Assembly: GCA_963664705.1 (NCBI GenBank)
Contig: OY761556.1
Location: forward strand, 2,016,001 to 2,080,000
Origin: Acidobacteriota bacterium
GTDB lineage: Bacteria; Acidobacteriota; UBA6911
DNA: 64,000 nucleotides
Direction: 5' to 3'
Under the pieces are notes generated by a model. The model searched no databases. It saw only the letters and a program-made list of their open reading frames with translations, and was not told the origin of the DNA. A program made the translations under genes and the position numbers. Below are positions 30,768 through 52,084 of the stretch, piece after piece. The stretch's first letter is position 1. Each line of letters begins with the position of its first letter.

Positions 30768-31820
30768 GTGTCAAAGGATTCCAAGCAAAAAAGACTGACC
30801 GAGTGCAGCAGTGCCGGTGGTTGAGCCAGCAAAATGAGTCCGGCGGTGCTGGACAAAGTTTTATCAAAGCTTCCACGCCAGGAGGACCCGCGTCTGCTGG
30901 TGGGCTTTGGAAAAAAGGATGATGCCGGAGTTTATCTTCTTCATGATGGACTCGCCCTGGTACAGACAACCGATTTCTTCACCCCTATCATCGACGATCC
31001 TTATCAGTACGGACAGATAGCCGCCGCCAATTCCCTTTCCGATGTCTATGCCATGGGGGGGCGTCCCATTACTGCCCTCTCCATAGTCTGTTATCCCGAA
31101 GACGGCGATCTCGAGATGCTCGAGCAAATCCTGGTCGGCGGCATGGACAAGATGATTGAAGCCGGCTGCACGGTAGTCGGCGGCCACATGGTGCGCGACG
31201 CCGAAGTTAAATTCGGCTACGCCGTCACCGGCACCGTTGATCCCAAGAACGTATGGACCAATGCCGGCTCTCATCCGGGGGATGTGCTGCTTTTAACCAA
31301 ACCTCTCGGCACTGGAGTGATCGCGACTGCTATTCGCGCCGGGAAATCCGAACCTGAATGGACCCAGGCTGCCATAGATGTAATGCGCCAACTGAATAAG
31401 GACGCGGCCATTGCTCTCGACGCGGTGAAGGATTCCATCCATGCGGTCACCGATATAACGGGATTCGGCTTCATCGGCCACACTCTCGAAATGGCGACCG
31501 GAAGCGAAGTCAGCATTCGCATCGAAAGCGGCAGCATCAGGCTGATTCCAGGAGCGATGGAGTGCGTGCGGCTGGGGTGCATCGCCGGCGGACTGAAAAA
31601 GAACCGCGCTTTTGTCGGCGCCGATGTGCAGTTCGCGGACGGAGTTTCTCCGGAATTGCAGCAACTGCTGTTCGATCCGCAGACATCCGGCGGACTGCTG
31701 ATCTCCATTCAGCCGGAAGCGGCGGAAGAAGCTTCCCGGTTGCTGGAAGCCGCCGGCTGCCAGGCCATGCGCATTGGCACCGCCATCGAAAAGATGGCTT
31801 TTCCCGTCCTGGTCATCTGA
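30768..31820 (+). CDS. selD: selenide, water dikinase, selenocysteine-containing (UGA at 30822-30824)
   Basis: In frame from GTG 30768: RLTECSSAGG-UGA-ASKMSP, matching the SelD C/U-x-x-K motif; also DDAGVY, TTDFFTP, AANSLSDVYAMGG, DPQTSGGLL. Confidence 0.93.
30838..30854 (+). promoter_or_regulatory. bacterial SECIS-like hairpin of selD
   Basis: GUCCGGC-GGU-GCUGGAC stem-loop starting 13 nt after the UGA. Confidence 0.65.
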
Positions 31821-47348: not shown

Positions 47349-48682
47349 ACAAATCGCTTTTCCCTGAATCGGATGAGCCGTCCGTAACGCCCGATGCCCC
47401 GCTGGCAGAGCGTCTTCGCCCGAGAACACTCGATGAGATCGTTGGCCAGCAACATCTGATCGGAGAAGGAAAGGTTCTGCGTGCGATGGTGGAGCAGAAC
47501 CAGTTGACATCGATCATTCTTTGGGGACCTCCAGGCACCGGCAAAACCACGCTCGCCCGCATCATGGCAAAGCAGACACACTCTCCGTTTGTTTTCTACA
47601 GCGCAGTGCTTTCGGGCATTAAAGAGATCAAGACCGTTATGGCGGAGGCGGAATCCCACTCACGCAGAAATCTGGGAAGAACCGTTGTGTTTGTCGATGA
47701 AATTCATCGCTTCAACAAAGCTCAGCAGGATGCATTTTTGCCTTATGTGGAATCAGGCGTCATCCTATTGATCGGTGCCACGACCGAAAACCCATCCTTC
47801 GAAGTAATCAGCCCGCTGCTCTCCCGGTGCAAGGTTTACGTGCTCAACCCGCTTCAGCCCTCGGAAATTGTTGAAATATTGAAGCGTGCCCTTACCGACG
47901 AAGCGCGCGGCCTTGGCAGTGTTTCGATCTCCGTATCCGACGAAGTGCTGCAACAGCTCGCCATCTTTGCCAATGGAGACGCTCGCATTGCCCTGAACAT
48001 ATTTGAGCTGGCCATTTCACTGAAGAGCGGGAAAAAGTCGGGAGAAGCGCTGGTATTGAATACGGCCGATCTGGAATCCGCACTCCAGCGGAAGATCCTG
48101 CAATACGATAAATCCGGCGAGGAGCATTACAACCTTATCTCCGCCCTTCACAAATCCATGCGCAACAGTGATGCCAATGCCGCCCTATATTGGCTCGGAC
48201 GAATGCTGGAGGCCGGCGAGGATCCGGTGTATATCGCCCGCCGCATGGTTCGCTTTGCCTCTGAAGATGTCGGATTGGCCGATGTCCGTGCTCTGAGCGT
48301 TGCCTTGGACGCCACGGAAGCGGTACGGCTGATAGGCCTTCCGGAATGCAAACTGGCGCTGGCGCAGGCTGCTGTTTATCTATCGGTGGCACCCAAGTCG
48401 AATGCTCTGTATACCGCCTATTCGAGCGTGGCTTCTGACGTACAAAGGACTTTTAATGAACCTCCGCCTTTACAAATCCGCAATGCGCCCACTAAGCTCA
48501 TGGAAGAATTGGGCTATGGCAAGGGCTATCAGTATGCCCATGACCTAAAAGAAAAAGTGGCGGACATGGAGTGTCTGCCCGATTCTCTTCGCGGCCGGCA
48601 GTACTACCATCCCTCAGACCAAGGAATGGAACGGCGCATCCGGGAAATCCTCGCCGAAATCAAGCAGCGCAAAAGCCATTAA
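47345..48682 (+). CDS. rarA: replication-associated recombination protein A
   Basis: PLAERLRP, GPPGTGKTT, DEIHRFNKAQQD, GATTENP, SALHKSMR. Confidence 0.96.
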   Translation: MNKSLFPESDEPSVTPDAPLAERLRPRTLDEIVGQQHLIGEGKVLRAMVEQNQLTSIILWGPPGTGKTTLARIMAKQTHSPFVFYSAVLSGIKEIKTVMAEAESHSRRNLGRTVVFVDEIHRFNKAQQDAFLPYVESGVILLIGATTENPSFEVISPLLSRCKVYVLNPLQPSEIVEILKRALTDEARGLGSVSISVSDEVLQQLAIFANGDARIALNIFELAISLKSGKKSGEALVLNTADLESALQRKILQYDKSGEEHYNLISALHKSMRNSDANAALYWLGRMLEAGEDPVYIARRMVRFASEDVGLADVRALSVALDATEAVRLIGLPECKLALAQAAVYLSVAPKSNALYTAYSSVASDVQRTFNEPPPLQIRNAPTKLMEELGYGKGYQYAHDLKEKVADMECLPDSLRGRQYYHPSDQGMERRIREILAEIKQRKSH

Positions 48683-48709
48683 CGCCAAGGGGAATCCCGC
48701 CGTGACACC

Positions 48710-48851
48710 TAATGCCTCATACTATTTGTCGAGGGCGAGGCCCTTCGGATTGCGGTGGCTTGCCCCCGCCTTCGGCTACTGTAATTATCAAAGGCGTCAG
48801 TAAGCTGCCGGACTCCATGGCGAGCCTCTTCGCAAATGATATACGGCATTG
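48710..48851. mobile_element. MITE/REP-like palindromic element, full copy
   Basis: Imperfect terminal inverted repeats TAATGCCTCATACTATTTG...CAAATGATATACGGCATTG, internal palindrome, and related copies at 50836 and 62030. Confidence 0.7.
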
Positions 48852-48961
48852 GGCGGGACGCGTCCTCATTGTCGGTACACGGTTTTTTGACATTTGCTTG
48901 TTGTAAATGCGACTGGAAGGTGGTTGATATAAATCAAACCATTTGCCCAAGAGAGGAACCA

Positions 48962-50737
48962 ATGAACTGCAAAGCGTTCTTTTTCGCGCCTTTTCTCCTC
49001 CCGTTCCTGTTTGCCGCATCTGCGGCGGCGCAAGATGCAAAAATCACCGCAATGAATCCGAGAGGCATTCTTCCTCTCATACGCAGGATACCGATGGCCC
49101 CGCGGCCAGCAACGCTGGATGGCAAGGTTATTTATCTGGTCGATTCAAGGTATCCGCGCACCCGGGAATTTGTTGAAGAACTGCATAAGGTGCTCCAGGA
49201 ACAATATCCGAAAACCACCTGGGTCCTTAGGGACAAGTTCGGAGGCTATGTCGATGATGATCCAAAGCTGTGGGCCGAAATCAAGGAGAAGGGGCATGGA
49301 ATGATTATGGCCCTTGGCCATTGAAGCACCTGCTCGCCGTCGGTCGTCGGCCATTGTGTGACAGCAGAGAGCTTGGGAATTCCAACAGTGCCAATCATTA
49401 CTCAAAGGTTTCGCGAACTTGTGACCGCCATCGCCTTCAAAAAGGGAATTCCGAGCATGCGGATGGTCTACACACCGCATCCGGTCACAGACCGGCCGGC
49501 GGCGATGTGCCGGAAATACCTGCAGGGCAATGACCCGGTTACAGGCAAGCCGATCCTGCAGGAGATCGTGGAAGGGTTGATGAAACCTGTCTCGAACGAA
49601 GATAAATCGACCGGCTTTCTCCCTCGACCGCCCCGTGTCCGGTTGCTGCCTCCGGACACCGCCGAAAACCTGGACAATTACTTCTATGATAATAACCTGA
49701 CGGACGGGCTTCCGATCGTACTTCCTACGGAAAAGAAGGTAGCTGAGATGCTGAAAGCGACCAGCCGCAAGCCTGACGAGATTGTCGGCAAAATGGCCGC
49801 TTCCACTCCACACGAAGCGTGGGAGTATACCGTTGAAATGGTTGCCGTCAATGCCGTGATGTCGGGAGCAAAGCCGGAATACTTCCCTGCAATTCTCGCC
49901 CTGGCCTCAACCGGTCAGACTGCCTTGGTCAGTTCCACATCCTCCTATGCAAGAATGGCATTGTTCAATGGGCCCATCGTGCAGGAAATGGGCATGAATT
50001 CAGGTGTCGGCGCCATGGGACCTTTTAGCCGAGCCAACGCCACCATCGGCAGGTGCTGGACATTGATGTCCAAGAATATTGGAGGGTCGGGCAAAATCGG
50101 TGAAACCTACATGGGGACTCAAGGGAGCAACCTCAATTATAACAACCTCTGCTTTCCGGAAACCGAAGACGCTTTGCCTCCCGGGTGGAATCCATTTCAC
50201 GTGCAGAAAGGACACAAGCGGTCCGAAAGCGTGGTGAGTGTTTTTGGCGGTTGGAGCCTCAGCGATATCTGCTGGTATACGCCCACGCCCATCTATCAGG
50301 TCATCCGTGGATGGCTGGAGCATTTCTTCTCCACCAGCGTAACCGGAGCCACACTTATCCTGGATCCGATGGTCGCCGCCGATGTAGCCTCCGCCGGGTT
50401 CAAATCCAAGGAGGACTATGCCGATTACCTGATAAGGAATACCGGAACGCCAGCCTGGCTTTATTGGCAAACCCGGCAGGCAGAGCTGGAACAAGCTCGG
50501 AAAGGCGTAGAGCCTTTTGCTACCTATTTGAAGGCTGGCGAAAACGGGGTAATCCCCCTATCGCGTTTTACGGGAAAGCTGGTCTTGGGTGTGCCGGTGA
50601 ATGCATTCGCGTTCGGTACTCTGGCCTCAGACCGCACGCCGATCGAGATCATCGTAACTGGAGGAGGAACCAACACCTATTGGGCTGGCGGCGATTTTAT
50701 GTATTCGGGCAGCGCTTCGATCGACCATTGGAGATAG
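48962..50737 (+). CDS. exported UGSC-family-like selenoprotein (UxxC; UGA at 49322-49324), 591 aa
   Basis: ORFs ending 49324 and starting 49358 are in the same frame, separated only by TGA: MALGH-U-STCSPSVV...GIPTV. GAGAGGA SD and signal peptide at 48962. Confidence 0.85.
49336..49351 (+). promoter_or_regulatory. SECIS-like hairpin
   Basis: GCCGUC-GGUC-GUCGGC (one U-U mismatch), 11 nt after the UGA; GGU apical loop as in selD. Confidence 0.55.
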
Positions 50738-50835
50738 GTGAAGCAACGAGAATGAAACTGTAGCCCGCTTGACCGCCAGCATCTTACGGGCAAGAGCACA
50801 GCTGGCTCTATCGCAGCCGTTGCCGCCGGGACGGC

Positions 50836-50882
50836 TAATGCCGCATACCATTTGTCGAGTACGATGCACTTCGGACGGCGGC
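50836..50882. repeat. truncated copy of the MITE-like element
   Basis: TAATGCCGCATACCATTTGTCGAG...CTTCGGA matches 48710 onward. Confidence 0.65.
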
Positions 50883-50884
50883 GC

Positions 50885-52084
50885 CTAGCTCATCAGAACC
50901 GGTTCAATGCGCTCGAGGGCCCAATTGATTTCATCTTTCGTGATGACCAGCGGCGGCGCAAACCGAACGGTGTTTTCATGCGTTTCCTTGCAGAGCAGTC
51001 CCTTCGACATCAGCATTTCACAGAACCGTCTGGCCCCGCCGGACTCGGGATGCAATTCAACGCCGATCAATAATCCTTTCCCGCGCACATCCTTAATATG
51101 CGGACTCCTGATGCGCCTTAACTCATTCTGGAAATAATCTCCCATGGCAGCGGCGTTTTCGATCATCCCCTCTTCCACTAGAACCTTCAGCGCCGTTCGC
51201 GCGATGGCACAGGCAAGCGGATTTCCTCCGAATGTGCTGCCATGCTCTCCTGGCCGCAGCACTCCCAGGACTTCCACATTCGATAATACCGCCGAGATAG
51301 GATAAAAGCCTCCAGACAAGGCTTTGCCGATAATGGTCAGATCGGCCTCAATTCCATCGTATTCTTCAGCCAGCAGACGCCCCGTTCTCCCCAGCCCGGT
51401 CTGGATTTCATCCAGAATAAAAACCACATGGTTCTTCTCACAAATCGCCTTGGCTCGAGACAGGAATCCCGCCGGGGGCACGATGACGCCGGCCTCCCCC
51501 TGTATAGGTTCGACCAGGAAGCCAACTGTGTTTGGCGTGATCGCCTTCTCAAGAGCCTCCGCATCGCCAAAAGGAATTACGGTGAATCCGGGTGTAAACG
51601 GACCGAAGTTTTCCCGATAGTATTCATCCGTACTGAAACTCACGATGGTAATTGTGCGGCCATGAAAATTATTGGCACAGACAATGATCTCCGCCTTGTG
51701 GCGGGGGACCCCCTTTACCTGATATCCCCATTTCCGAACGGCTTTGATAACCGTTTCGACAGCCTCCGCGCCGCTATTCATCGGCAACACCTTGTGGGAA
51801 TGGGTCAGATCGCATATTTCCCTGTAAAACAAACCCAACTGATCATTTCGAAACGCGCGTGAAGTCAACGTCAGCTTCCGCGCCTGCTCCTCCATGGTTT
51901 TCAGTATTCTGGGATGACAGTGTCCCTGGTTGACCGCCGAATAGGAGGACAGGCAATCGAGGTATCGATTCCCATCCACATCCCATACCCAGACGCCTTG
52001 CCCCCTGGCAAGAACAACATCCAAAGGCTTGTAATTGTGCGCGCCGTATTCTTCCTCGAGGCGGATAAACTCCGTGCTGTCCAT
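50885..52084 (-). CDS. rocD: ornithine--oxo-acid transaminase
   Basis: [45 protein letters not shown]. Confidence 0.95.

Follow-up and report, generated by a model that had tools for sequence, protein, structure and literature searches.

The gene described here lies on the forward strand of the window, by which we mean the whole 64,000-nucleotide stretch analysed, and all of its features are on that strand. A single frame of 591 codons runs from an ATG at 48962 to a TAG at 50735-50737, and its sole internal stop is the TGA at 49322-49324. Read as selenocysteine, this codon places U121 in the context MALGH-U121-STCSPSVVGHC and forms a UxxC motif with Cys124 (49331..49333), the predicted resolving cysteine, which is conserved at +3. 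A Shine-Dalgarno-like AGAGGA (48952..48957) is found 4 nt ahead of the ATG. The full gene (48962..50737), delimited from sequence, Pfam, alignment and a structural model, encodes a 591-aa selenoprotein in which a UGSC domain (Pfam residues 41-183; 49082..49510) is fused to a second domain, Unknown_1 (approximately residues 225-591; 49634..50734). The gene is solitary, with rarA/mgsA on one side and a convergent ornithine aminotransferase gene on the other. Promoter and terminator scans at the locus returned signals at chance level only, and an Rfam search of 48600-51000 gave no match.

Residues 1-23 (48962..49030) are predicted to form a Sec-pathway signal peptide, with a hydrophobic core and an A-A-A/QD end. 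A heuristic hydrophobicity-and-charge rule is positive for this segment, the N-termini of close relatives are likewise hydrophobic, and the export signal suspected in an earlier note on this DNA is regarded as probable. The same note had proposed that two adjacent open reading frames are one gene with a recoded TGA, that the second frame has no convincing start, and that standard annotation would divide the gene. This is what we find. A table-11 caller splits the locus into 48836/48962-49324 and 49358-50737, the downstream piece has GTG 49358 as its only possible start with no purine-rich site ahead of it, and coding conservation extends to both sides of the TGA. Among the 120 best protein database matches, 119 begin beyond the Sec position, showing that the same split is present in the databases.

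Decoding of the in-frame TGA

The TGA at 49322-49324 is almost certainly recoded as selenocysteine, as judged from paralogues, relatives, Cys homologues and a contig from a second study. One TGA occupies the U121 column in 31 of the 35 UGSC paralogues of this genome, and TGA is likewise found in 36 of 39 site-covering matches from 32 loci of other genomes, the remaining three having TCC, AAC and CTG. TAA, TAG or TGG never appears in this column among the 39. Every one of the 31 Sec paralogues and of the 35 related Sec genes has Cys at +3, as in the UxxC motif noticed earlier. The other 52 database proteins that cover the site form a biased set, Sec forms being truncated there; 23 of them have Cys in the column, 20 as CxxC, and an identical GHCSTC is found in six Cys homologues (P0088, P0127, P0204, P0235, P0252 and P0259). 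Four of the 35 paralogues have neither Sec nor Cys at this position, and 29 of the 52 library homologues have other residues or gaps. Part of the family thus works without this nucleophile.

The earlier note also stressed that the motif, H-U-S-T-C, is not UGSC. The window gene does carry USTC, and the literal UGSC motif occurs in 7 of the 31 Sec paralogues. This genome alone has 11 different UxxC variants, of which USTC is one.

The chance that the TGA really terminates translation, encodes Trp or arose as a sequencing error, the locus then being two genes or a pseudogene, is close to negligible. It could be argued from the hairpin described below, which is weak alone, from the Trp that one of the 52 library proteins (P0163) has in the column, and from the split UGSC and Unknown_1 genes of other genomes. 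Conversely, the TGA falls within the UGSC domain and not between the domains, and the column counts given above favour recoding. A contig from an independent study spans 49079-49576 with 0 differences, TGA included, and because of this agreement the TGA is not a base-call error. TGA also terminates ordinary genes in this genome.

As noticed earlier, a hairpin with a GGU-containing loop begins 11 nt after the UGA. We assign it as a putative SECIS element (49334..49351; stem 49336-49341/49346-49351, with one U-U mismatch) on the basis of frozen wobble sites, folding and the bacterial SECIS model. That model, as summarised in PMC13188914, places the element 16-37 nt from the UGA with G first in the loop, and the GGUC loop at 17 nt fits it. 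Taken alone, the window hairpin has no unusual stability (z of +0.34 to +1.74 relative to dinucleotide shuffles and of -0.09 relative to synonymous shuffles). The third positions of codons 125-130 are fixed at 91, 94, 94, 94, 100 and 86% in 35 distinct related Sec genes, which are not independent samples; at the other fourfold sites of those genes, 0 of 170 reach 90% and the median is 47%. Support for this candidate element is comparative rather than thermodynamic. For the interval from +10 to +39, the mean z of the 31 paralogues versus synonymous shuffles is -0.99, a better fold than that of control intervals (-0.12). Stems differ between paralogue clades, and a five-member D-U-G-S-C-T-K clade is negative in this interval and folds into a hairpin of greater length (z -1.7 to -3.7).

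The genome encodes the machinery that such decoding requires, with two copies each of selA, selB, selC (tRNA-Sec) and selD over cut-off; a third RF01852 match over cut-off is a tRNA-Ser. One selenophosphate synthetase gene, selD, lies in the window itself (30792..31721, forward strand; TIGR00476, 368 bits). It has its own in-frame TGA at 30822 (G-G-U-A-S-K) and is a second probable selenoprotein gene of the window. Elsewhere, a second Sec cluster (L087, G000:3066000-3082000, G000 being this genome) comprises selB, selA, a selD fused to a CMD domain and tRNA-Sec, and adjoins genes for a corrinoid protein, two URO-D-like proteins and RACo. Sequence identity is only 34% between the two SelB proteins and 41% between the two SelA proteins. 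Two SelB/SelA sets, together with short and long SECIS types, raise the idea of two parallel Sec-decoding systems.

A molybdopterin oxidoreductase gene with one in-frame TGA (G000:4400667-4401947, reverse strand) probably encodes a formate dehydrogenase selenoprotein. ARAGORN reports a 72-nt tRNA with a TCA anticodon (G000:1625651-1625722, reverse strand) that is missing from the Rfam tRNA-Sec list. Counting selD and this oxidoreductase with the 31 Sec genes of the UGSC family, the genome has at least 33 Sec genes, a lower bound, as the coding-potential scan was noisy (259 candidates, with 17 of the 31 known genes recovered). Published record selenoproteomes hold 39-63 genes spread over many families (PMC5029168, PMC12013277, PMC13188914), compared with 31 Sec genes from one family here and 45 UGSC matches in a congener.

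Family, copy number and gene neighbourhoods

The N-terminal domain belongs to Pfam UGSC (PF24696; 93.1 bits against a cut-off of 25), which bears out the family resemblance seen earlier. It scores 70.4 bits against the NF041046 equivalog cut-off of 125, and the window protein is thus a divergent fused subfamily and not an NF041046 equivalog. UGSC was described as a major selenoprotein family of the GOS data, "likely" thioredoxin-like and with UxxC as its motif (Table 2), and its fusion to Unknown_1 was shown in the same paper (Zhang and Gladyshev 2008, PMC2398784). Residues 295-346 of the window protein match, by eye, the printed Unknown_1 alignment in Fig. S1A of that paper. The fusion to an uncharacterised domain is confirmed, as the C-terminal domain has no Pfam or NCBIfam family. 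However, neither the UGSC family nor the Unknown_1 fusion is new, both having been published in 2008, and the description of the locus as an undescribed system has to be withdrawn. A 2026 review (PMC13188914) still lists the family without a function. The gene is therefore a real selenoprotein gene of a known, functionally orphan family. In the papers searched, we came across no description of the predicted exported form of the fusion, of its approximately 30-fold expansion or of a GrdB/PrdB link of UGSC proteins, and the main text of the UBA6911 preprint does not contain "selen".

This expansion extends to the congeners. We counted 35 UGSC matches in the genome, which is 6.89 Mb long, in a single contig, 98% complete and with 6.2% contamination, and all 24 sampled congeners have 9-45 each, the highest number being in G006. 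Among other genomes of the class, 2 of 16 have one match each; across the phylum, 17 of 200 have 1-2 and the others 0, with at most 16 candidates scored per genome. The closest loci are listed as Acidobacteriota, one as UBA6911, with a best identity of 88%. The expansion recurs in other phyla, since the genomes of a Desulfobacterales and a Dehalococcoidales locus contain 28 and 11 matches. The 35 paralogues are old, with a median identity of 33%. One pair, in contrast, is 99.8% identical and lies inside a 2.36-kb cassette with different flanks, which points to recent movement of the module. The two cassettes (G000:3995159-3997515 and 6758069-6760425) contain the fusion and a DUF4352-like gene, are 99.6% identical and have unrelated flanks. 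Because old, divergent copies occur together with a near-identical pair in different surroundings, contamination cannot explain the copy count. By the heuristic hydrophobicity-and-charge rule alone, 27 of the 31 Sec copies have a Sec-type signal, one a Tat-like signal and three none, and three of the four non-Sec copies are without a signal; several relatives also have Tat-like signals.

The two domains appear to be an obligate pair that travels together. All 35 Unknown_1 matches of the genome lie within the 35 UGSC frames, and both domains are present at 18 of 20 loci elsewhere, either fused or nearby within the fetched stretch, in either order. Split UGSC and Unknown_1 genes exist in other genomes.

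The other copies in this genome are found amid W/Mo oxidoreductases, esterases, TonB-like receptors, SnoaL-like proteins and MFS transporters. Zones within 5 kb of a paralogue, which make up 5.5% of the genome, include 7 of 25 aldehyde:ferredoxin oxidoreductases (AFOR), 5 of 20 Mo-hydroxylases, 4 of 16 carboxylesterases and 8 of 35 TonB-like receptors, compared with 5/51, 2/25 and 1/7 for control families. The enrichment is 3-5-fold, for families chosen post hoc and without multiple-test correction. In the clustering of 62 stretches (61 loci plus the window), an AFOR is near 13.

These neighbours could mean that the protein handles a metal, metalloid or cofactor, through W/Mo delivery or organometal lyase chemistry, in the service of the W/Mo oxidoreductases beside it. 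The Tat-like signals of one paralogue and of several relatives would fit such a role. We nevertheless find this very doubtful. Most copies, including that of the window, have no W/Mo neighbour, and most are predicted to be Sec-exported, whereas the AFORs inspected lack a signal peptide. In addition, there are few conserved metal ligands: the AMAG-C Cys, found in 11 of 11 stand-alone Unknown_1 copies, is absent from the five fused forms compared.

An exported DUF4352-like protein of approximately 190 aa is a candidate accessory subunit, as judged from gene order. Nine copies are encoded in the genome (L062:5946-6512 and eight relatives), and eight of them abut a paralogue. The gene is found beside all five paralogues of the sister clade of the window gene, but not beside the window gene itself; the tree that names this clade was made by a quick method, has two long branches meeting, and was used for this purpose only. 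DUF4352-like genes also stand beside fusions in L095, L096, L099 and L101.

The protein could alternatively bind or sense solutes, the UxxC motif serving as a redox switch or covalent trap, together with TonB-like receptors and an Ig-like partner. Expansion and diversification of this kind resemble those of solute-binding families, TonB-like receptors and DUF4352-like proteins are near paralogues in the numbers given above, and some family members have neither Cys nor Sec. Such a role is quite unlikely in our judgement, as the costly Sec is retained with the +3 Cys in 31 of 35 copies, signal-less stand-alone UGSC and Unknown_1 pairs sit in enzyme operons, and ABC permease genes are not regular neighbours.

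In 9 of 32 related loci the next gene on the same strand encodes a GABA-transaminase-like class III aminotransferase. This link was seen in a single clade of related genomes; the paralogue here that belongs to this clade (L066) has no such neighbour. Several loci (L093, L103, L108, L119, L100 and others) share a conserved string of genes for a nuoF-like protein, a small subunit, an exported methyltransferase-like protein, an SDR, the UGSC fusion and the GABA-transaminase-like protein, sometimes with a convergent AFOR.

The best lead to the substrate is an operon of congeners (L148, L149 and L155), in which a trxB-like gene abuts a stand-alone, signal-less UGSC gene. It further contains DUF6282, stand-alone Unknown_1, two DHDPS-like aldolases, both non-Sec and Sec fusions, four family III CoA-transferases and a dehydratase, with Mo-hydroxylases adjoining. 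In this genome (at L067), DUF6282, both aldolases and two non-Sec fusions are retained. Among the 67 neighbours scanned at 18 further loci, which are varied and mostly metabolic, no third partner is shared, and no universal neighbour of UGSC fusion genes was found.

Several other families are expanded in this genome, including about 25 AFOR, 20 Mo-hydroxylases, 35 TonB-like receptors, 14 URO-D-like proteins and the L060:7030-8016 type of exported protein, of which there are 25 and for which Pfam gives no match. Three long library proteins, P0216, P0218 and P0256, are exported, measure 845-1254 aa and contain CGCGLC motifs; the first two match the query in two stretches.

Predicted folds and the GrdB/PrdB resemblance

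AlphaFold2, run on a 147-sequence alignment with Cys in place of Sec, gave a confident model of residues 25-591 (pLDDT 94.7, pTM 0.93). In the model, five beta-alpha units build up the N-terminal domain, and UxxC follows the third strand, ahead of the next helix. The top structural matches of this domain are receiver, flavodoxin-like and Rossmann-like domains (Z 8.3-10.6). The best 50 matches listed are receiver, Rossmann-like or binding-protein domains, with no thioredoxin-fold chain among them, and no thioredoxin-family HMM in Pfam or NCBIfam matches the protein. The modelled structure thus favours a fold other than thioredoxin. Foldseek with the whole model returned weak alpha/beta matches only, and a sequence search of solved structures gave nothing significant (best E 2.1 with the protein, 0.073 with the profile).

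A relationship emerged at the profile level. The N-domain profile aligns with GrdB/PrdB-type selenoproteins from 25 loci (hhalign 96.2%, E 2e-9, 73 columns), and the alignment is in register: U/C falls on U/C, followed by the +3 Cys, E-x-x-G-I-P-T-V and P-H-P. A single GrdB from a grdA/grdE operon gave 86.6%, compared with 0.4-17% for eight alpha/beta control profiles from the same genome. The homology spans only about 75 residues around the Sec. PF07355 has no match to the window protein at E up to 1 and none in the genome. GrdE/PrdA (PF09338) likewise has 0 matches in this 98% complete genome, and was found in the positive control, G029. The alignment suggests that the UGSC active site is of the GrdB/PrdB type rather than the thioredoxin type. 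Within the phylum, PF07355 matches 37 of 151 genomes, and many PF07355-positive genomes encode short PrdB-like selenoproteins (L124-L147), mostly with P-V-U-P-x-C.

These results bear on the more conventional view, in which the protein is an ordinary UxxC enzyme of the periplasm that reduces thiol-disulfides, peroxides or sulfoxides, and Unknown_1 binds the client. UGSC has been classed with the thiol oxidoreductases (PMC2398784, PMC13188914), UxxC sits at a helix N-terminus in the model, and both a trxB-like neighbour and a DsbD in the genome would fit such an enzyme. We consider this unlikely. The top fold matches are receiver- or flavodoxin-like, and the sole significant profile link found is to GrdB/PrdB. 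Nor would general redox upkeep account for 35 divergent copies amid catabolic genes, and 0 of 10 AhpC/TSA-type matches in the genome have a TGA.

Folded alone, Unknown_1 is also modelled confidently (pLDDT 93.7). Foldseek found no match at E <=0.001, and a wide structural search of 48,161 chains had a best Z of 4.8, with none >=5. This domain of approximately 370 aa has no known structural relative, which does not by itself show that the fold is novel. Its conserved polar residues are D248, T256, N359, R364 and E400, and loop 321-331, with a variable S-T-x-S at 325-328, differs between clades. No similarity was found to one GrdE (0.5%) or to one DUF5940 (GrdC-like) protein, and no invariant Cys or Ser is available for a pyruvoyl site.

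Proposed function and comparison with known systems

The known Grd and Prd enzymes work in the cytoplasm, with coupling to energy conservation, and GrdB acts in the same way as PrdB. For D-proline reductase, PMC11229817 describes D-proline as held on PrdA while the Sec of PrdB attacks its alpha-carbon, and reports the U151C variant to be inactive. By analogy, we tentatively propose that the window protein is a periplasmic Se-nucleophile reductase that cleaves a carbon-heteroatom bond of a small organic substrate. Comparison shows that UGA 49322 and the RNA element after it are conserved, and the decoding set of SelA, SelB, tRNA-Sec and SelD is present in the genome. After removal of the signal peptide, the two domains are predicted to pack as one unit, with U121-x-x-C124 at a helix start of the flavodoxin-like domain. 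As the GrdB/PrdB homology implies, the selenolate may attack an activated carbon, at a C-N bond like those split by proline and glycine reductases or at another C-X bond beside a carbonyl or onium centre, and Cys124 would release the product, leaving a Se-S bond. Unknown_1 could bind and activate the substrate in place of PrdA/GrdE, its variable loops setting the specificity. The Se-S bond would be re-reduced by DsbD, of which the genome encodes one full copy, in the periplasm, or by thioredoxin reductase in the case of the cytoplasmic forms.

Specificity set by loops would explain why 35 copies at a median identity of 33% are kept in one genome, and the GABA-transaminase-like neighbour would fit an omega-amino-acid product, like the 5-aminovalerate of Prd. 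Many divergent exported copies amid scavenging genes also fit a family that splits many related substrates. Several points count against bond cleavage. Unknown_1 is unlike the one GrdE compared and has no invariant pyruvoyl-site residue with which to activate a substrate, and a periplasmic location would lack the energy coupling of known Grd and Prd enzymes. The solitary window copy, the lack of a universal neighbour, the homology span of only about 75 residues and the members without Cys or Sec weigh in the same direction.

Taken further, the cleavage proposal would define a class of periplasmic selenoenzymes, in which a GrdB/PrdB-type selenolate domain and a substrate-binding domain of new fold carry out reductive C-N/C-X cleavage with tens of specificities per genome. 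This broader picture is possible, and we hold it more loosely still. If true, it would imply extracytoplasmic cleavage of organic matter by anaerobes of sediment, peat and digesters, would give the orphan UGSC family a function, and would mean that this family by itself ranks an Acidobacteriota genus with the bacteria richest in selenoproteins. Since gene callers cut these genes at the UGA, the selenium demand is largely hidden in annotations. The GrdB/PrdB link indicates which chemistry to seek, and the fusion, being soluble, probably exported and a single chain of which natural Cys orthologues exist, lends itself to expression, crystallisation and screening.

Compared with the published UGSC/Unknown_1 fusion, the window protein has the same N-domain, place of UxxC, partner domain (with its AVN.VM.G..PEY.P...NG segment) and domain order. 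It differs in its predicted signal peptide, in having USTC instead of UGSC, in its length of approximately 590 aa and in the absence of the Cys conserved in the Unknown_1 figure. It further differs from the published family in its 35 copies per genome, its NF041046 score below cut-off and its modelled flavodoxin-like fold, the papers on UGSC regarding the fold as probably thioredoxin-like. Thioredoxin-fold UxxC selenoproteins (Trx, DsbA-like and DsbG-like), some of which are exported, share the UxxC redox motif, whereas a beta-alpha repeat with receiver/flavodoxin-like matches is predicted here. With PrdB and GrdB, the window protein shares U-x-x-C, the following helix, the E-x-x-G-I-P-(T/V)-V strand and P-H-P. 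In contrast to them, it has no third Cys of the UxxCxxC type, carries an unrelated partner domain fused in cis and is predicted to be exported.
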